Shown here one piece after another: positions 9,801-21,337 of a DNA stretch of 64,000 nt. The position numbers were made by a program, and so were the translations under genes. The stretch is from NCBI GenBank assembly GCA_002269645.1, contig NIVC01000440.1, forward strand, positions 1 through 64,000, written 5' to 3'. Origin of the DNA: Macrostomum lignano. Taxonomy: Eukaryota. Positions within the stretch are counted from its first letter, which is position 1, and every line of letters starts with the position of its first letter. The notes below the pieces were generated by a model. That model was not told where the DNA came from and did not search any database. It saw nothing but the letters and a program-made list of their open reading frames with translations.

Positions 9801-10005
9801 AATCATTCGAATGATATATAAAAATACTTTACAATTACTATTTTTAGTTAATAGGTCTAGGCCTAGTCTTTGAGTCACTATTGGTCAGATTAGCTATCAC
9901 TATTTAGCCAGGGGTGTTAACTAATTTGCCTTGGCAATAAACATGTTTAGCAATAGAGATTCACTAGTATAAATATAGCAAAAGCAAATTCAGCAGCAAT
10001 ATAGT

Positions 10006-10999
10006 TGTAACGTTTGGTCTCTGATTCGTCTCGAGGTGGCCTGGCAGGTCTTTGTATCCCACCGCTGCCACCAGTGAAGTACTTCTCCTTCTCGGGTTCT
10101 CGAAGATGTTCCTAGCAAATAGAACCCGCTGCTCCTGAAGAAGCTAGATAGCACCGCAGTACTACCTATCGATTTGCCTGAAAATGAACCTAAAACGTTG
10201 GCCTTGACTTGGTAGGGTTGCTGCCACCTTGGTGTGCGGACTCGACGTGTCGGCAGAGTTGTCTATCCGTCACCTGAAATAAAATTAACGAAGACACTCG
10301 TAGCAAAGGCCAAATCTGAAAATGTCTCAACAGTCGATTGTCTTAGTTGAATGCTACTCAGACCTGAAAACCTGTAAAACCTGAAATGAGAGAGGAGAGC
10401 TCGGAGGCAGAGGCTTCACGAGTTAGCCATAATGCTCCGCGAGACGACGCAGTCTACGACACGGTCTGGAGAAAATTGGCTCGCAGATGCTCCGTATTTA
10501 TAGACGAGCGGACCCCCAAAAGTCACGTGAGTTTCATGCGGTGAGCGCGTGAAACTTCCTTATTTGGGCATTGGAATCATGCGAACGACGCGTGATCCAA
10601 GGCCAACTTCCAAATAAGGCAACCCTGTCACGCAGCAGTGGCGTGACTCAAGGTCAGCGGCCACGCACAGAGTGCGTGCACAGTCACGTGCTTAGTCTGT
10701 GCTAAAAATAGAATCGTGGGCGGATGAGTCATCCTGTTTACTCCCTCTAGGCAGCCCTTACACTCCGCGCAGGTGATGAGTCATCCTGCTACGCCTCCTC
10801 AGCGCGAGTGGGAAGACATTGAGTGTGGCTGCCCGCGCCCGCTCAGGCGATGAGTCATCGGGCAGTAAACACTTAGGCCCAGCACAGGGTAACTCTCTCA
10901 CTCGCTCAGGTGGACTGAGATACTGTGCAGCGGATCACAGCACTCTTAAGGAAAGCTAGTGAATGCTGCTGAATAGCCAGATAGCAGCCAGTCACTACA
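10006..10999 (-). repeat. 3' LTR (994 bp)
   Basis: Starts TGTAACG, ends CACTACA; 10510-10999 is identical to 19610-20099 (offset 9100). Confidence 0.95.
10496..10857 (-). promoter_or_regulatory. LTR U3 promoter/enhancer: TATA box, 2 ETS+CArG composites, 4 AP-1 sites, 2 CACGTG E-boxes (copy in the 5' LTR at +9100)
   Basis: TATAAAT (minus) 10496-10502; CCTTATTTGG 10558-10567 and CCAAATAAGG 10610-10619, each overlapping ACTTCC; TGA(C/G)TCA at 10644, 10725, 10777, 10851; CACGTG at 10524, 10685. Motif matches only; function not shown. Confidence 0.65.
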
Positions 11000-11521
11000 C
11001 TCTCCCCGTCCAAATTAAATTGCAGCAGCGGAACGATGATACAATTTTATTTGAAAAACAAAACGGCTCTAACAAGGCCACTGAAGTATTTATTGCTACT
11101 AAAGAAGAAAATCAATGCGCGCCAGTCAAAAAGATGGTGTACCACTGCGAAAAGGCAACGTGAACTACATGTCATATTAATTGCGGAATAAAATGTTGAT
11201 TACATGAGACAGTTTTTAGATTAGACTGCATAGTTGTAATGATGAGAGATATTTTAATTTTGAGATTTTTGAAAGAAAGATTTCCTGATTATTGATTAAT
11301 AGATTATTTAATAAAGTATAAATGTTGTCATGTAATTTAAAATTTTGTCGCATATAAACTACAGATGATGTCAACAGTTTAACTTGTTTGATGGTGTTTT
11401 TAATGAAAAATATTGATTTGAGCAAAAGTGACTTTGAGTAATAATAGAGCCAACCTTGAGCTCGCGGAAATAACTTTCACGAAATAACGGGTTGATGAAT
11501 TATTGGCCAAAATGGCTGAAG

Positions 11522-12634
11522 TCAAAAACGAACGAACTTATTAAAACCGGCCGGCACGTCAGCGGCGAGGCCTAAAAAGAACAGTAGTTTCAATATGGCC
11601 AGTTCTAACGATGAAGCGTGCGGCGGATGAGGCGGGAGAGCAGCGGCCGTTCGACGGGCGACCTCCTTTATGGCCCGCTGCCTCTCGTCCGGTGAGGCGG
11701 CTCGGAAATCCGCTCTGATTCCTTCTGGCCAACTTCGGCAGAGCTGCCCCTTTTGTCCGGCTGATACTAGGAGCTCAGTGAGGATGATGATGGCCTTCTC
11801 GGTGATGGAGCTCGGGCGATCGCTCTGAGTTTCTGCATCCACTAGCTGCGGTCGAGCCCGGATAGCAGCGCTAATCGCCTCCGCGAGTTCGGTCCGGCTG
11901 AATAGGCGGGGCGGCGACGGCACCGGTGACGGTCGGCGAAATCGAGGGGACGACGGCGTGGGCGGCGTTGGGACCTCGTCCAGATTGACAACGTCGGGTT
12001 GGGGCGGTGGTGTCAATACACCTAAATAGTGCCCTGGCGGTGGCGAGGATGACCGAGGCGGCGTGTGCAGCACATCCTCCCTTGGATTAAGAAGAGCCGG
12101 CGGATGCTCATTCGGCGAGACCTGCTCTCCCACGATGTCCTGGATAGGAGGCAGCAGGTCTTCACCGGACTCTTCCTGCAGGGAGCTACTCAGGCTGCCA
12201 AGCAAGTTGAGCAGTTCTCCGTCAGGCGCCTGAGCCTCACCCGATTGCTGCGGATTGGGAGTGCCTTGCACTGGCCGGCTGGGCGCTCCGCCCTGATGGT
12301 CGGCGGTAGCTGGAAGTCGGGCATCGAATGAATTAGCTAGGGCCGGATTTAATCTACGGCGAATGACCTCCGCCCTCTCGTTGGCAACCGCGAGACGATC
12401 CTCCAGCGATGAGGGCTGCAGCGGAGCGAGTCGGCGTACTTCGATCCGAGGCTCCTGTCTGCGCTGATCGTCCCAACGACTGCGGCGCCTATGCGTCGTG
12501 TCCTGGGCCGGCGTCGGTAGGGCTTGCGTTCGGCGAAGCGGCAGGGCAGGCCGCGTGCGCTTCCGGCCACTAGCTGGTGAGGGCGTCCTAGAAGGCTCGC
12601 GGTCGCGCCTCTTCCGGTTTTCTTTGCCCGTCAT
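11522..12634 (-). CDS. Gypsy ORF3, 370 aa, unknown accessory protein (basic/Pro-rich, not env-like)
   Basis: Uninterrupted ATG-initiated ORF between the pol stop and the PPT, same strand as gag/pol; no signal peptide or furin/fusion-peptide pattern visible. Confidence 0.75.
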   Translation of the reverse strand: MTGKENRKRRDREPSRTPSPASGRKRTRPALPLRRTQALPTPAQDTTHRRRSRWDDQRRQEPRIEVRRLAPLQPSSLEDRLAVANERAEVIRRRLNPALANSFDARLPATADHQGGAPSRPVQGTPNPQQSGEAQAPDGELLNLLGSLSSSLQEESGEDLLPPIQDIVGEQVSPNEHPPALLNPREDVLHTPPRSSSPPPGHYLGVLTPPPQPDVVNLDEVPTPPTPSSPRFRRPSPVPSPPRLFSRTELAEAISAAIRARPQLVDAETQSDRPSSITEKAIIILTELLVSAGQKGQLCRSWPEGIRADFRAASPDERQRAIKEVARRTAAALPPHPPHASSLELAILKLLFFLGLAADVPAGFNKFVRF

Positions 12635-12638
12635 GCTT

Positions 12639-15600
12639 TTAATGTTGCTTTACAGCGCTGGAACAGGCACGAGGCCGGCGGAAAAAGTTGATTAACCGGC
12701 TCAAGTAGGACTTTGACTTTGGTTTAAGAACCAAGCGGTCAGGTTCCCTTCGAGCCCTAACTGGCCTGTCATTGACGGCCCATTCGACTTGACTAGTTGA
12801 TGGCAAATTGGCCGACAAAACATGACTATTATTTGGCAAATTGGCCGACATAACATGACTATTACATTGATTATTCCTATCAGAGTCTAGGTTAATCCTA
12901 TCGCTAATTTCAATTTCAGGTCGCCTCTGCGTTTCAGCTGTAGGAGCGGATGGAGCGTCGCAAGAATCATACGGCAGTGACTCAAGCTCAACTCTATTCT
13001 CCATAACTTCAGGTTCCTGGATGCGGACTTCGGTTGGACGCGCGCCTGGCTGAGCAGCTGATCGGAGTCGCCAGCGATAGGCGGGTCTCGTGTCCAGGTC
13101 ATCTTCTTCGTCAGAGTCCTCAGAGATGGCGGGGAGTGTCGCAGCTCCGGCGTCAACCTGTCGAACTCGGCGTTGCTTCTTCGGTTCGGCTGGCCCTTCG
13201 AGATCTGCAATTGGATAATCTGAAGTGGGCACAAGGAGGAGGTTCCGGCGATGAACTACCATCTCGTCCGGTCGTTCTCGAGGGTGTCGAACCTTCCGTC
13301 GAATCTTGTAGACGACTTCTCCTTTGCTTTCCACCACTTCATACAACGATCTCCTTGGCCTGTGGAACTTCACTGCTTCGTCTTCGTGTAGGACCGGATT
13401 GTTCAAGAAGACGAGATCTCCCGGCTGTAGCTTCTTAGCTGCTGGTCGGTTCTCGTAGTATTCGTCTCGCGCTTGCTGATGCAGGCCTAGCCGTTCCTTG
13501 GCGAGGTCCGTGGCGTGCTTGAGGCGTTGCTGAAACTCTGCGACGTAATCAGGCAGGTTGGCATACTCCGGGAGTAGCTTCAATGAGTTGTCGAGAGGCA
13601 TCCTGTATTCTCGGCCATAGACTAAGAAGTAAGGCGTATAGCCTGTGACTGGATGAACGCTGGATCGAAGAGCAATCATGCACGCTGGCAGAAATGTGTC
13701 CCAATCGCGGTGATCGTGCTCAAGGAGACATGTCAGAATGCTCTTGATCTGCTTGTTCAGATTTTCTACCAGTCCGTTGGATGCTGGGTTGTACGGCGTC
13801 ATTGTCGTGTGCCTGATAGCGTAGAGATCACAGAACTTCTTGAAGGCGTTTCCTGTAAAGTTCGTGCCTTGGTCCGTGTGAATCCAAGCTGGAACTCCGT
13901 ATTCTGGAATAAATCGGTCCTGAAGTAATCGGATAACGGTTTTAGCTTTCTGATTTCTCATCGGATAAGCTATCGAAAACTTTGATGTCGCACAGCAAAG
14001 TGTCAGGATGTATCGATGACCTCCTTTGGACGGTTGCGCAATCGGTCCGATCACATCCATGTGAAGTCTTCCAAATACTTCGCAGACTGGAAAACTCTGT
14101 ACTGGCACTTGCTGTTTTCGTCGTGACTTGCTCTCTAGGCAGGTTCGGCATTTGCTGACGTAGGTCTCAATGGCTCGGACTAGACCTGTTCGCCAGAATC
14201 TTTCGCGCACACGTTGGGCGGTCTTACGCTGTCCTTGGTGTCCTGCTAAAGGCGAATTGTGGAGCTCGTTAAAAACTTCGTCGTCGAGAGCTACTGGTAA
14301 GACAATCTTCGGTGGTGTCTTTTTCCGTCAAGTTGATCATGAGTAGATCTCGCTCGAGGAATAGTAACTCGTAGTATCCAAGCAGATTCCGTTGCTCTCT
14401 GCTAAGTCGTAATCGATCGTCAAACGCTAGTTTCGGTTGATTCTCCTTGATCAACTTGTAAACGTAGCCAATAGCTGGGTCATCCTGTTGAGCTTTGATG
14501 AGCTTGTCGCGCGGCAATGGCGGATTCAGATGATCCGTAAGCAATGCTCGGCAGCGCGGCAGACTTTGAGAAGTTGCGAGCTGGGGAGATGCTTCAGCTG
14601 TACGTACTCTGTTCTCCTCGTATGCAGACTTCGTCACCTCTGCATAGGAACGCGTCAGTTTCGGCGTAGGACGAAGGCGCGTCATGGCGCAAGACATATC
14701 GTCCACGCGTTGATAATGGGTGGTCGGCTGCAGGCTCATGGAAGAGCAACGAGACGGCTCGACCTGCTGAGTCTGTCGGCTCATGGAAGAGCAGCGGGAC
14801 TCCTCAGCGGTAAATTTTCGACCGAGATCTGAGCAGTGGCGCTCGACTGGGAGGGCTGCTGGAGCGGTGGCCTCCGAATCTTCGTCCAAGTCAGTCTCCA
14901 AACTCTGTAGGTAGACCTGATGGCTGTCGTTGGAGAGGGCTGAGGATACAGTGGCCTCTTGAACTTCATCCAGATTGGTCTCCTTGAAGTGACGGCGAGC
15001 GTGGGTGGCTCGGCAGAGGGCTGCTGGTGCGGTGGCCTCTGTGTCTTCATCCAAGCTTGCTGTCTCCTGGCTTCGACGTGAACAGTGGAGAACTCGGCAG
15101 AGGGCTGCTGGTGCGGTGGCCTCTGGTTCGTTGTCCAAGTCGGTCTCTGCCTCTGGATCGCGATTGTGGGTCTCGGTTGTGAGGGCTGCTGGTGCGGTGG
15201 CCTCTGAATCGATGCCCGGATCAGTTTCCTTAATGCGGCGACACTCACGCTGAGTGGTGGCACCTGTCTCCTCGCGGTGGCAAGCCAGGACAGCGTCGAC
15301 GTCTTGGAGTACTCCGTAATCGCATTCTAACGGAGGCGTGTCCGGGCGTCTTGATAGCGCGTCGGCGTTGGTGTGGTCAGTACCCTTGCGATGGGAGATG
15401 GTGAACTGAAATTCGCTGATCCTCTGGACCCATCGACCTAGAATCCCTGTAGATTCAGTCTGACGTAACAGCCAGAGCAAGGCCTTATGGTCACTTCTTA
15501 CTTCAAACTTCTTTCCTATTAAGTATTCTCGAAAGTGTCGCATGGCATCGACGATAGCCAGTAGCTCCCGCTTGGTGACCGTGTAGCGAACTTCCGGGTC

Positions 15601-17762
15601 ACGGAGCTTGCGACTGAAAAAGGCGATCGGTCGTTCTATTCCATCGGATTGTAGTTGTCCTAGACAGGCACCGATTCGGGTGTCGGATGCGTCGGTATCC
15701 AGGATGAACTTGACCTTCGGATCCTCATTGAACTCTGGGAGGGCGAGTACTTCGGTTGAGCATAGCTTGCTCTTCAGAGTCTCAAAGGCAGTCTGATGCT
15801 GCTGCGTCCAATGACGCTGGAATCCTTGCAGGTCCTTACGTGTCAATGCGTGTAACGGGGCCGCGATGCCCGAGTAATCTTCGACGAACTTCTTGTAGTA
15901 ATTGGCGAGACCAAGAAAGCTTCGTGTTGACGAACAGTCCGAGGCGTTGGCCAACTGCGTATCTGCTCAATCTTGTCTTCGCTTGTCCGTAGGCCTTCCG
16001 GCGTAATCACGTGGCCTAGATAGTGGAGCTCCTTCTTAAATAAATGGCATTTCTTCGGCTTTAGCTTCAAGTTGGCGGCTATGATTCGGTTTAGGACTTG
16101 TCGTAGACGGCCTAAGTGATCTTCGAACGTCACTGCGTGTACAACGATGTCGTCCATGTAACCAAGAGCGGCCTGCGGTGCTAGTCCTTCTAGCAGTTGG
16201 TTGATACAACGCTGGAACGATCCGGGGCTGTCGGTGAGTCCCATTGGTAGCACCTTGAAGCAGAATTGTCCACGATCGAGCACAGAGAAGGCAGTGATGT
16301 CCTGGTCTTCCTCGCGGAGAGGGATCTGGTAGAAGCCTTGTACCAGGTCGAGGCTTGAGTACCACTGCGCTCCTTTGAGTTTGGCGAAAGTTTCCTGAAT
16401 GTGCGGGATCGGGTACGGGTGCTTCAGCGTCACATCGTTGATCGCTCTGAAGTCGTGCACAATGCGAATCGTCTTGTCCTTTTTTGGCACTAGGATCATC
16501 GGCGAATTGTAACTGGAGTACGTTGGCCGAATGATGCCTTTCTTCAGCATATCATCGAGCATCTGATCCAATTGCGGTCGTAGATGCGGAGGTATCCGGC
16601 GAGGAGGAATCGCGATTGGCGTCGAGTCTGTGAGCACTATCTCATGAGTTACCAGGTGAGTCAGTCCGTGGTCCAACGGAGTTAGGGAGAATGCCTTCTC
16701 GCATTCCTTGAGTACTTCTTGAACCTGGTGCTTCTGGTGGCTGTTCAGCTGGTCTCCGATGTCGACCTCGTTGATCCAACTGTCAGTCGTTTCTTCAGTC
16801 GTATTCAGTTGACGGACTTCTGGCTCGTTCGACTCGCTGAAGTACTCGAGGTCCTGGGTCTTGAGTGGCGTGGCTACTCCCAATAGCATGTTGCGACGCA
16901 AGTGAACCTCTGTGTCTGATGGGTTGAGTACTTCCATCACTCCTCGACCTTCTGTCATCGTGTGCAGGACCGGGGCTGCGTCTAACTGGTGATGCTTCGC
17001 TCGCAGTCCTGATTTGAGCGGTTCGATAATCATCGGTGAACCGTAGTTCTGCTGATGACCTTCGGCTAGTTTAATGGCGACGAGGCAGGAACATTGAGGC
17101 GGCAGAGTGCATTTTTCAGCGACGTACACTCGGCAGGCCTTCAGTTCTCTCCTTGAATAGCGTACCGGAAGTCGGGTGCCTTGTCGGAATGTGAGCATTC
17201 CTTGCTGGAAGTCCAGTCCTTGGCAGTGACTCCGCATGAAATCGATTCCTAAAAGATTTTCACAGTCTCCTTCGGCGACGAAGAATTCGGTTTCCGCGAC
17301 ATAGTCCCCGAATTCGATTGATAGGATAACCTTAGCGGCGAGACTTAACTCGGTCCCGTCGTACATAGCGACTCGGTTAGGGTAAGCAGGTGCGACTATA
17401 CAACGTGGTGAACGACGCCTAATGGCGGCCCAAGTGGACGCTCCGAGGAAGTTTCTTCTGCTTCCGCTGTCTAGCAGAAAGGCGACCTCTCGTCGAGCCA
17501 CTCGTCCTGTAATAAATGGGTCGGCGTCACGCGCATGGACAGTATTTACAAAGGAGGCGTCCACGAAACCTCCATCGTCCGTTTCTTCGATTACTGACGA
17601 CTCGGACGAGTCAGCTGCCGCGGCTGCGGGGCCATACTCTTCCGGGGCGTGTTCGTTGTCGGCTGCATAGCCTGGGCTGGAGCTCGGGGGGCGTTGCCGT
17701 TTACGTCCTCCGGCCGGCCGTTTCCCGTAAACTGCTGAGATGATTGGCGTCTGTACGGACAA
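12639..17762 (-). CDS. pol: Gypsy pol (protease, RT, RNase H, integrase), split by two single-base frameshifts (~15928 and ~14320)
   Basis: LDSG protease; LDLVQGFYQI and YMDD RT motifs; DASD, ELLAIV, SDH, ADALSR RNase H; HHCC, MDVIGP, TDQG-35-E integrase. Confidence 0.95.
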
Positions 17763-18769
17763 TCTCTCGCCTTGTGTCCGTCTTGATTACACTCGTAGCA
17801 CGTGTAGTTCGGCGGTCGGTTCGCTTGACCGATCACTTGATTGGCTGTGACTTGCTGAGCCAACGTGTTAAGCAGATGCTGCTGCTGCTGCATCATTGCG
17901 GCTTGTTGCTCAACGACTTTCTCCAACTTCGAGAGGGCGCTGTTGTTGTTCTCCTTCGAGGCTTGTCCCTCCCCGTCCAACATTCTGACCGGGGGCTTTT
18001 TCGAACGATGAGCCAGGTCTTTGGCTAATTCCATCCTCTTCAGTGCTCGCAAGGCTTCGCTGAGTGTCGTAGGTCGGATCCAGAAAAGTTTCTCGCGGCA
18101 GTCTGATGACGTGCGAATCCCGCGCAGGAACTGGTCGATCAGTTCTTGCTCTAGATGGCGAGGCTCGAGCCAAGGGAAGGCTTGCTCTCCTAGCTCCTGC
18201 AGAGCATCGGCGTAATCTTCCGTTGATTCGTTCTTGCGCTGGTTGCGACCTCTGAATTCCTCTCGATATTCGTCTGGTCCTGAGAGTCGTGCGAATCTCT
18301 CTATTAGTCGTTGCTGAAGCTGTCGATAGCTGATGCGGTCGGGCAGCCTCATGCGAAGTACCGCGGCGTAGGCCGAATTTAAGTCTAAATTCGCCAGCAA
18401 TTGGGCCTTCTTGTCGTCTTCATCCTGTAGATCTTCTGCCTCGCATCGTAGGTCGAAAGCCTTTAGCCAAACGCGGATGTCCTGCGATGGCGTGTAGCTC
18501 TTCATCTTGACTTGCTTCTTAGGCTGTAGATCGAGCTGACGTTGCATGGCCTGCAGCATCCTGCGGATCATGTCCGGGTTGGTGTCGCGTCCGAGGTTGT
18601 TGAGTCCTGCAAACGAATCTTCCTCCTCCTCTCTTGAGTCGTCTCTAAAATTAAATCTTAAACCACATGGTATGGGCGAACCTGCAGCAGCTGCGGCGGA
18701 GTTTCCGTTGTCCTGACGCGTGTGCTGCTGATCACCGATGAGATCTTCTCGATCACTGTCGTGAGACAT
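17591..18769 (-). CDS. gag: Gypsy gag with CCHC zinc knuckle
   Basis: 392 aa ORF; QRKNESTEDYADALQEL capsid-like segment, DQFLRGI, CYECNQDGHKARDC; overlaps pol in the -1 frame. Confidence 0.93.
   Translation of the reverse strand: MSHDSDREDLIGDQQHTRQDNGNSAAAAAGSPIPCGLRFNFRDDSREEEEDSFAGLNNLGRDTNPDMIRRMLQAMQRQLDLQPKKQVKMKSYTPSQDIRVWLKAFDLRCEAEDLQDEDDKKAQLLANLDLNSAYAAVLRMRLPDRISYRQLQQRLIERFARLSGPDEYREEFRGRNQRKNESTEDYADALQELGEQAFPWLEPRHLEQELIDQFLRGIRTSSDCREKLFWIRPTTLSEALRALKRMELAKDLAHRSKKPPVRMLDGEGQASKENNNSALSKLEKVVEQQAAMMQQQQHLLNTLAQQVTANQVIGQANRPPNYTCYECNQDGHKARDCPYRRQSSQQFTGNGRPEDVNGNAPRAPAQAMQPTTNTPRKSMAPQPRQLTRPSRQ
17720..17726 (-). other. Candidate -1 ribosomal frameshift site G GGA AAC
   Basis: X XXY YYZ heptamer correctly phased in gag (acG GGA AAC) within the gag/pol overlap. 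Confidence 0.75.
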
Positions 18770-19010
18770 CTTGATGCTGACTTAGTCGTGGTAGGCGTGA
18801 CTGATGACGTGTCCGAAAGGGTGATAGTTGAGTGACGTTGACGTCGATTCGGTGACGTTCTCCTGCTTGCTTGCTGTATCCCGTATCTCGAATCTCGAAT
18901 CCTTTGTCTCGAATCTCGAATCCTTTGTCTCGAATCTCGGATCTCAAATCCTTTGTCTCGAATCTCGAATCTCGAATCTCGAATCTCGAATGTCGTATCC
19001 CGAATCTCGA

Positions 19011-19175
19011 ATCTCACCGCTGTTCCACCAGTGTAACGTTTGGTTGTCTCTGATTCGTCACGAGGTGGCCTGGCAGGTCTTTGTATCCCACCGCTGCCAC
19101 CAGTGAAACGTTTTGGTTGTCTCTGGGTTGTCTCGAGGTGGCCTGGCAGGTCTTAGTATCCCACCGCTGCCACCA
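19011..19175 (-). other. Three tRNA-Leu primer-binding-site-like sequences
   Basis: ATCCCACCGCTGCCACCA (3' 18 nt of metazoan tRNA-Leu(AAG), from recall) at 19085-19102 and 19158-19175; degenerate copy at 19011-19030; another copy at 10056-10073. Confidence 0.85.
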
Positions 19176-20099
19176 GTGAAGTACTTCTCCTTCTCGGGTT
19201 CTCGAAGATGTTCCTAGCAAATAGAACCCGCTGCTCCTGAAGAAGCTAGATAGCACCGCAGTACTACCTATCGATTTGCCTGAAAATGAACCTAAAACGT
19301 TGCCGTTACTTGGTAGGGTTGCTGCCACCTTGGTGTGCGGACTCGACGCGTCGGCAGAGTTGTCTATCCGTCACCTGAAAGAAAATTAACAAAGTCGCTC
19401 GGAGCAAAGGCAAATCTGAAAAATGTCTCGACAGTCGATCGTCTTAGTTGAATGCTGCTCGAACCTGAAACCTGTAAAACCTGAAATGAGAGAGGAGAGC
19501 TCGGAGGCAGAGGCTTCACGAGTTAGCCACAATGCTCCGCGAGACGACGCAGTCTACGACACGGTCTGGAGAAAATTGGCTCGCAGATGCTCCGTATTTA
19601 TAGACGAGGGGACCCCCAAAAGTCACGTGAGTTTCATGCGGTGAGCGCGTGAAACTTCCTTATTTGGGCATTGGAATCATGCGAACGACGCGTGATCCAA
19701 GGCCAACTTCCAAATAAGGCAACCCTGTCACGCAGCAGTGGCGTGACTCAAGGTCAGCGGCCACGCACAGAGTGCGTGCACAGTCACGTGCTTAGTCTGT
19801 GCTAAAAATAGAATCGTGGGCGGATGAGTCATCCTGTTTACTCCCTCTAGGCAGCCCTTACACTCCGCGCAGGTGATGAGTCATCCTGCTACGCCTCCTC
19901 AGCGCGAGTGGGAAGACATTGAGTGTGGCTGCCCGCGCCCGCTCAGGCGATGAGTCATCGGGCAGTAAACACTTAGGCCCAGCACAGGGTAACTCTCTCA
20001 CTCGCTCAGGTGGACTGAGATACTGTGCAGCGGATCACAGCACTCTTAAGGAAAGCTAGTGAATGCTGCTGAATAGCCAGATAGCAGCCAGTCACTACA
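19032..20099 (-). repeat. 5' LTR (996 bp from 19104, or 1068 bp including the extra PBS unit)
   Basis: Direct repeat of 10006-10999; ends CACTACA followed by TSD TAGT. Confidence 0.93.
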
Positions 20100-21337
20100 T
20101 AGTCAAATTTTGGCTATAATGAACAAAGAACAATTGTATAATCTTTTAGCACAATGGTATTAGTCAATATAAATTGGCTTTCCATTTAAATGAGTTTGTT
20201 TGATTTTTTATTTATCTTGTACTTTTAAATGTGCTTTCCAAGAAATGTATATTCATCTAGTCTTATCAATGACTTAATTATTAATTTTAATTAATAATTT
20301 TTAGCTACAAAAAGGAGTTGAATTTTTATTTTTTCTTCTTGCCTACATCCTAAGCCTAATATTTTAAGTGTATCTACTCTACCTATTATAAACTTATAAT
20401 ATAAACTTAATTTTGTACTTCAATAGCCAAAAAATATAAAAAAATTCTACATATACTTTTGTGATGCTAGCTAATATTGGCACCTTGGACACTACTGACA
20501 GTATAGTCTACATCTGTGCCTAAGTCTTGAAATGTATGTTATGACATTGTTTTATCTCTTATGACTCACTCAATTGGATGGCAACATATTTTGTTGTTGT
20601 ATAATAAGAGCCATTGCATGTTACTATGACACTCTTTGCATGCCAGTGGCTTAGGATCTTTTCTTAGTCTAGTTATAATATTAATTTGGAGCTAAATTGG
20701 AAATTTGGAATCTTGGCTTGGATAAGTTGTTATAGACTGGCCATGCAATTAACCATTGTGAACCTATCCCCAAGGCATTGTAAAGTGTACATATTGTATG
20801 TGCTTGTATGTCAACTCAGGAGAATTGGCAAATTGAGCAATGCCTCTTGATAGATGTATGACAATATTGTTTAAAGTATGCCAGGGTGCACACAGTCCTA
20901 TGCCTCTAACTAAAAAACATGCTTATAAGCAAAGCAAGAAGCCCACTATCTCACTGCTAGGGTGAAAAGAGCTTTGAGTTTTGGCTCAAATGCAGCTTAA
21001 TTTCAATATCCAATTCCAGCAAAAAGGCAGGTTTTTTTGTGCCTGCAAAGCAAACTTTTTTTCCTAATTTTACAATAGCAAAACTATTCTCTGATGCCTG
21101 ATCCACCCTGTTATTTCCAAGTTAATTGACCATTTTCTCATTTTCCTGACTAACTGGCTGACTTCAAAGAAGTTGTTATTCCAATGTGGAAAAGTTTTTT
21201 TACAAAAAACAACTTATTAAAGAAAAACTGGTTTTTCTCTTTTCATGCTGTTAATAATATGAATTTTCTAGTTAAATAATAGAAGCCATATCTTAACATT
21301 GCCTACTAGTAGTAGGCTTATCTGGTAAAAATAAAAA

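Follow-up and report, generated by a model that had tools for sequence, protein, structure and literature searches.

Serial tRNA-Leu primer sites at a variable LTR end in a Ty3/gypsy retrotransposon family of Macrostomum lignano

The end of a long terminal repeat (LTR) is usually taken to be fixed by a single primer-binding site (PBS), whereas in a retrotransposon of Macrostomum lignano several ends, each a CA followed by a PBS, lie in series and a perfect site appears to have been passed over. Is such an array real and, if so, which of its sites primes reverse transcription, and how did a perfect site come to lie inside an LTR? We addressed these questions in a window of 64,000 nucleotides from contig NIVC01000440.1, and in contigs from sequencing runs in which the same stretch is present. 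The array is real, family-wide and mechanistically interpretable.

The element is an LTR retrotransposon occupying positions 10006-20099, and all of its features lie on the minus strand. It has TG...CA ends and is bounded by a 4-bp target-site duplication (TSD), ACTA, at 20100-20103 on the 5' side and at 10002-10005 on the 3' side. Downstream of gag (17591-18769; Pfam Retrotrans_gag and zf-CCHC), pol is distributed over three frames: a first piece (15843-17786) bearing reverse transcriptase (RT) and a protease-like match at E=0.003, below the Pfam cut-off; a second (14269-15966) bearing RNase H; and a third (12639-14327) bearing integrase. The frame changes, near 15,850-15,960 and 14,270-14,330, may be real or may reflect sequencing error. 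An 84-nt coding repeat lies at 14836-15217, within a long insert that separates RNase H from integrase. After integrase comes an additional proline-rich open frame of 375 codons (11522-12649) belonging to no family; considered as an env candidate, it gave no Pfam match and no usable Atlas match. A polypurine tract (11000-11011) precedes the 3' LTR (10006-10999), which measures 994 bp and is again bounded by TG...CA.

Protease, RT, RNase H and integrase following gag, TG...CA repeats with a TSD, a polypurine tract and a tRNA-type PBS together place the element in Ty3/gypsy. The best RT relative, among 312 matches at E<=1e-20, is from Macrostomum lignano itself, at 74% identity over 92% of the query. 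The accessible text on Ty3/gypsy elements (Ty3/Mdg4, Metaviridae) of this species describes the same gag, protease, RT, RNase H and integrase, TG...CA LTRs, polypurine tract and TSD, the candidate clades being Mag, CsRN1, Gmr1/Osvaldo and Mdg3/micropia; neither “PBS” nor “tRNA” occurs in its main text as available (PMC12801592). The window holds no second copy of the element.

The unusual part of the element is its 5' end. The first U5 tip (19177-19236) ends in ACTTCA and is followed by one C and a perfect 18-nt primer site (site 1, 19158-19175), then by a 54-nt spacer (19104-19157) that terminates in the att-like GTTTCA, another C and a second perfect 18-nt site (site 2, 19085-19102). A 53-nt spacer (19032-19084) terminating in GTTACA, and a further C, lead to a third, bulged site (19007-19030), which adjoins the internal region; it starts at 19030, departs from the 18-mer by one mismatch and by a 2-nt insertion behind base 6, and extends to ATTCGA at 19007. 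An array of GAGATTC-type heptamers (18885-19015) and then gag come next. Site starts are spaced 73 and 72 nt apart, and TRF reports a period of 73 at 19011-19180 (2.3 copies, 89% matches). The 3' LTR closes with the same U5 tip, a C, a perfect site (10056-10073, 50 nt from the LTR end), a 50-nt spacer terminating, as spacer 2 does, in GTTACA, and the TSD. Every primer site is preceded by CA and one C. These observations bear out what a sequence-only reading of this DNA had proposed, namely a tandem series of two perfect primer sites and one imperfect one, a perfect copy inside the 3' LTR, and the availability of several U5 ends. The 5' LTR, with two PBS-spacer units, measures 1068 bp (19032-20099, TG...CA) if the last CA is its end, 996 bp if it ends at 19104 and 923 bp if it ends at 19177; the 3' LTR has one unit. 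Neither AATAAA nor ATTAAA occurs in 18800-20099, so the R/U5 border is not placed.

A scan of the window for the 18-mer with up to three mismatches returned 3 matches against 0.02 expected, a number reached in none of 100 shuffles. The 18-mer is the exact reverse complement of human 3'-tRF-Leu(AAG/TAG) as given in a table of PMC8698603, so that its proposed identity as a tRNA-Leu 3' end holds on the strength of the human sequence; the window contains no tRNA genes. Both perfect copies repeat one and the same 18 nt, which is not the bipartite PBS of Ty1/Ty3 type, and the T-loop is reached by the bulged site and the heptamers only. The heptamer array begins inside the bulged site, repeating its T-loop-complementary end, grows from the 3' end of that site, and has length variants in contigs (joints at 18892 and 19000). 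A 9-nt PBS-like piece following CA-A at 19321-19329, 150 nt upstream of site 1, matches the 5' part of the PBS and may be a relic of an older unit or chance; any PBS 9-mer was present in 22 of 1000 shuffled LTR cores.

Could the array be a product of assembly? Across 73 aligned columns the three units differ by 8 events, a single one among columns 1-40 and the other 7 among columns 41-73 (p=0.019, or p=0.13 with the PBS excluded). Assembly stutter is unlikely because of these differences and because independent runs have contigs with letters of both spacer types. More broadly, an assembly artefact or a chimera of two family members might account for pol lying in three frames despite near-identical U3 parts, and for the fact that none of the contigs listed spans both 5' units, the two-unit form being read from the window itself. 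Against this stand the differences between units, the intact TSD, and the presence of the unit and its variants in contigs from 4 studies, and we regard the explanation as scarcely credible. The duplication is thus unlikely to be artefactual, which was an objection raised in the original reading.

The stretch is present in 20 of 24 listed runs, from 8 studies of one organism. Four of the 20 (X1, X4, X6 and X11, from 4 studies) were compared over 18600-20300 at the level of contigs, covering 15 of the 19 joints, 24 of the 408 loose ends and 40 of the 155 variant positions. No RNA dataset is on record among the runs with the stretch; X11 is RNA by guess only. The summed contig depth of unit 1, which is not a copy number, exceeded that of a gag-side bin (18771-18827) by factors of 21, 25, 28 and 5 in the four runs, and was at least that of the lowest LTR bin (19512-19568). 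Past site 2, between bins 19056-19112 and 18999-19055, summed contig depth fell 90-, 75-, 66- and 6.5-fold; this step suggests that the embedded unit belongs to an abundant LTR class and not to leaders alone.

The contigs show that the family is polymorphic in unit number and LTR end. In X1, X4 and X11 at least one contig each carries a zero-unit joint, in which a 145-nt skip brings the bulged site straight after the first U5 tip. Spacer-1 letters are found at the spacer-2 position (19053, 19054 and 19056) in the same three runs, as expected of a one-unit form. At least two X11 contigs exit the LTR at 19177 into unlike flanks, marking the first U5 tip as the true LTR end in some copies, and LTR ends of the 19177 type and of the 10006 type both appear to occur in the family, which would imply that more than one of its sites has primed. 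The boundary variation suggested earlier is therefore borne out. The same cannot be said of the description of the third site as a degenerate copy. Bulged-site forms stand directly after other upstream ends in all four runs compared, and in the window the site adjoins the internal region; because it recurs in other copies, the bulged site is not private decay of this insertion.

Which site, then, primed? Our firmest result is that at least one round of reverse transcription began downstream of a perfect site and copied that site into an LTR. The U5 of a 3' LTR is copied from the primer site used, an established mechanism in the available account of it (PMC6894440), and the 3' LTR here ends 50 nt past a perfect site; priming must accordingly have occurred downstream of that site. 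This much upholds one part of the earlier proposal, that the LTR boundary moved by capturing an old PBS, since the LTR end does lie downstream of an embedded site. Capture itself is one of two live readings. On this view the ancestral PBS and the start of the leader survive as the perfect site with its hairpin arm, the element later took up another CA end and primer site further downstream, and additional units were produced by ordinary slippage or unequal exchange. Primer sites usually do consist of a perfect 18-mer immediately following CA, and in all four runs at least one or two contigs exit the unit exactly at 19137, the last hairpin-arm base, as a sister leader might. The weak homology of spacers to U5 and the tandem-repeat-rich setting point the same way. 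Two observations are left unexplained by capture, namely units in which the spacer copies the U5 tip (in at least three of the four runs) and bulged sites directly after the first tip, and we consider it rather unlikely. As to the setting, the window has 44 TRF rows scoring at least 200; minisatellites of many unrelated periods are dense at 21800-60050, and many of the long ORFs there overlap the arrays.

The other live reading, which we favor but give no more than an even chance, is that the perfect 18-mers are copies of the tRNA itself, left by misplaced plus-strand transfer and then carried into U5 by downstream priming. The U5 end would be expandable in units of a CA end, one base, an 18-nt tRNA-Leu site and a spacer, and the primer site inherited by the family through the genome would be the bulged one. 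Plus-strand strong-stop DNA, ending in an exact 18-nt copy of the tRNA, would pair badly with that bulged site and might sometimes resume on an upstream U5 end, in the same or a co-packaged RNA, leaving a perfect 18-mer and a second U5 tip. Downstream priming would then move the unit into both LTRs, out-of-register pairing between sites would gain or lose units, and a predicted hairpin of each perfect site with its spacer could reduce use of that site, allowing long LTRs to persist. Whichever site primed would fix the LTR end of the copy concerned.

Several features are consistent with tRNA copying. In retroviruses plus-strand copying stops at m1A58, after 18 tRNA-copied bases, according to the accessible text of PMC11251516. 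The perfect sites end at exactly 18 nt while the bulged site continues into T-loop complementarity, which copying of this kind would not produce. Length alone does not show copying, because exact 18-mers are ordinary in single-PBS elements. For instance, two metagenome contigs (L002 and L003; matches at 2501, minus strand) contain an unrelated Ty3/gypsy family whose LTR is short and which has one perfect copy of this 18-mer. More telling are contigs of X1, X4 and X6, at least one in each, in which a perfect site is followed by a 15-nt copy of the U5 tip, one base and the bulged site; these directly show a perfect 18-mer and second tip as a mis-resumed transfer would leave them. In X1 and X6, moreover, at least three contigs each have a spacer ending in first-tip sequence and then a short CA-C-TGG duplication, and a sister U5 lacking 19266-19114 shares its final 10-11 bases with the spacers (X1, X4 and X11). 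An imperfect inherited site could persist by analogy with Ty3 and Ty1, which do not inherit the PBS from the tRNA in the portion of PMC5371799 available to us. Common mouse endogenous retrovirus (ERV) primer sites are likewise imperfect, as the part of PMC7472051 at hand reports.

For the long spacers, homology to the U5 tip is weak and reaches significance in one of the three only. The homology of spacer 1 was reached by 4 of 2000 shuffles (29 of 2000 with CA fixed) and that of the remaining two by 202 and 288 of 2000; in an unanchored search of spacer 1 against the tip, 103 of 500 reached the score. Derivation of the spacer from U3 was also considered and set aside; the best score, seen with one spacer of the three, was reached in 4 of 500 shuffles and is likely due to chance. 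Other points weigh against tRNA copying: the order of zero-unit and one-unit forms, whose direction is not given by the data, the stronger duplex of the perfect sites, the use of a hairpin PBS by HTLV-1, and the minisatellite-crowded window.

Predicted folding bears on why a perfect site might be skipped. Each perfect site can, in the model, fold onto the first 21 nt of its own spacer in two 6-pair stems. The predicted cost of opening the perfect sites is 16-18 kcal/mol in isolated units and 14-18 kcal/mol in three longer contexts, compared with 5 and 8-12 kcal/mol for the bulged site and 8-11 kcal/mol for three ordinary single sites. Costs as high as those observed arose with shuffled spacers in 30, 10 and 25 of 300 trials, and conservation of the hairpin is not significant without the PBS (p=0.13). 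Masking of the perfect sites by these hairpins is accordingly suggestive only, and barely beyond chance. The HTLV-1 PBS, for example, sits in a stable hairpin yet is used, as the consulted part of PMC11251516 has it. Predicted pairing with the tRNA favors the perfect sites. With the 18-nt tRNA end the predicted duplex is -39.8 kcal/mol for a perfect site and -26.1 kcal/mol for the bulged one, and with a T-loop-bearing stand-in tRNA lacking CCA the values are -32.6 and -28.0 kcal/mol. The stand-in was one viral locus retrieved when tRNA genes with the matching 3' end were sought; ARAGORN called no tRNA gene there, and the locus was used for T-loop geometry alone. On these predicted energies, both perfect and bulged sites could serve as primer sites.

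Site 2 also deserves consideration as the working primer site of this copy, with the bulged site and heptamers acting as an auxiliary contact for the tRNA T-arm. LTR lengths would then agree (996 bp from 20099 to 19104, against 994 bp), the perfect duplex is predicted to be the stronger, and Ty1, Ty3 and gypsy offer examples of bipartite sites, as far as the available text of PMC5371799 and PMC1635307 goes. But the spacer of the 3' LTR resembles spacer 2 more than it does spacer 1 (alignment scores 90 and 70), zero-unit forms carry the bulged site only, and skipping of site 1 would still be required. We judge this arrangement distinctly unlikely.

Comparison of the two LTRs shows why this copy alone cannot discriminate between priming at site 2 and at the bulged site: its R-U5 looks to derive from two templates. 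Between 20099-19177 and 10999-10075 the LTRs differ at 1 of 530 U3-like positions and at 18 of 393 positions downstream, from 19569 to 19177 (p=2e-6). A TATA-like box, recognized by motif and position at 19595-19602, lies close to this transition, the pair being near-identical upstream of it and diverged downstream. Alleles at 19604, 20003 and 20049 are common to both LTRs though rare in reads, and the downstream differences at 19381 and 19391 are standing family variants in reads. Template exchange at the R-U5 end did occur, because LTR differences are concentrated downstream and some of them are standing variants. The insertion looks young, and the element is likely a recombinant of two family members. 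Canonical reverse transcription yields identical LTRs, in the available text of PMC6894440, and the pair described here would therefore need an intermolecular second transfer or later conversion.

Might the embedded sites be under selection? By sequestering tRNA-Leu 3' fragments or by loading primer tRNA in advance, they could protect an imperfect working site. No variation is seen in the three embedded 18-mers, in contrast to the distal spacers (1 versus 7 events, p=0.019), the unit is common among LTRs, and 18-nt 3'-tRFs block ERV priming in mouse (PMC7472051 and PMC11251516, as far as their accessible text extends). Perfect sites on the same RNA would nevertheless invite silencing, they are predicted to be paired, and tRNA copying keeps sites perfect without selection; we find a selected decoy very unlikely. 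An extension of the tRNA-copy reading, which we rate as unlikely, is a self-renewing switch, in which priming would proceed from a deliberately imperfect site while perfect tRNA-copied sites were regenerated in U5 and masked by hairpins, giving several LTR lengths. If true, primer-site choice in vivo could be read by counting genomic LTRs, and the host genome would be strewn with perfect targets for 3' fragments of tRNA-Leu.

Partial parallels exist in better-known systems. Voronin and Pathak (2004) reportedly built retroviral vectors with two serial primer-binding sites for one tRNA, either of which may prime. Here, in contrast, the arrangement is natural, a separate CA end precedes every site, and LTRs commonly contain the upstream site. 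A natural case is the 23-nt partial PBS duplication of HIV-1 MAL type, present in 14% of isolates in the available text of PMC3185550; that duplication is partial, downstream of the PBS and outside the LTR, whose end is unmoved. Ty1, Ty3 and Drosophila gypsy possess more than one tRNA-complementary stretch (PMC5371799 and PMC1635307, from the portions at hand), but there the second site binds a different region of the tRNA, whereas here the 3' 18 nt are repeated, each time behind an integrase-type end. In mouse ETn, MusD and IAP the working PBS may be imperfect and occasionally becomes perfect again via tRNA copying; each element has one site there, with no array described in the accessible part of PMC7472051. 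Nor is an embedded PBS mentioned in the accessible part of a review of LTR structure (PMC3601003). A full-text literature search found no natural CA-plus-PBS array in an LTR, a result that is weak since Repbase and most subscription papers lay outside it.

We also scanned viral and metagenome contigs, which contain few animal genomes. In the viral contigs the tandem-site pattern and a unit-specific pattern each gave 0 matches, the single 18-mer gave 2, neither tandem, and none of 10 candidate RT relatives was confirmed. Two metagenome matches to the tandem-site pattern (spacers of 30-60 nt) were rejected as single-PBS elements of one family with a second TGGTGG near the coding start.

If a perfect site has indeed been passed over, counts of LTR ends in one genome measure which primer site wins in the animal, whether through pairing, position or RNA structure; primer-site choice has otherwise been studied in engineered vectors. 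Such counts would bear on the trade-off between priming and tRF silencing, which has been proposed for ERV sites in the available text of PMC7472051. There is a practical warning too, in that LTR callers can misplace boundaries in families of this kind. Moreover, dating by LTR pairs fails where R-U5 derives from two templates, as the 1 U3-like difference against 18 downstream illustrates.

Two minor features of the LTR complete the description. Just past the LTR start (20099), the flank consensus shows the same four letters in 3 runs, at low agreement and among the loose ends listed, a pattern that could stem from a target preference or from the polypurine tract. Six TT(T/A)CAG acceptor-like motifs also cluster on the minus strand in the LTR's downstream half (19486, 19477, 19470, 19421, 19380 and 19285) and might serve cis- or trans-splicing.
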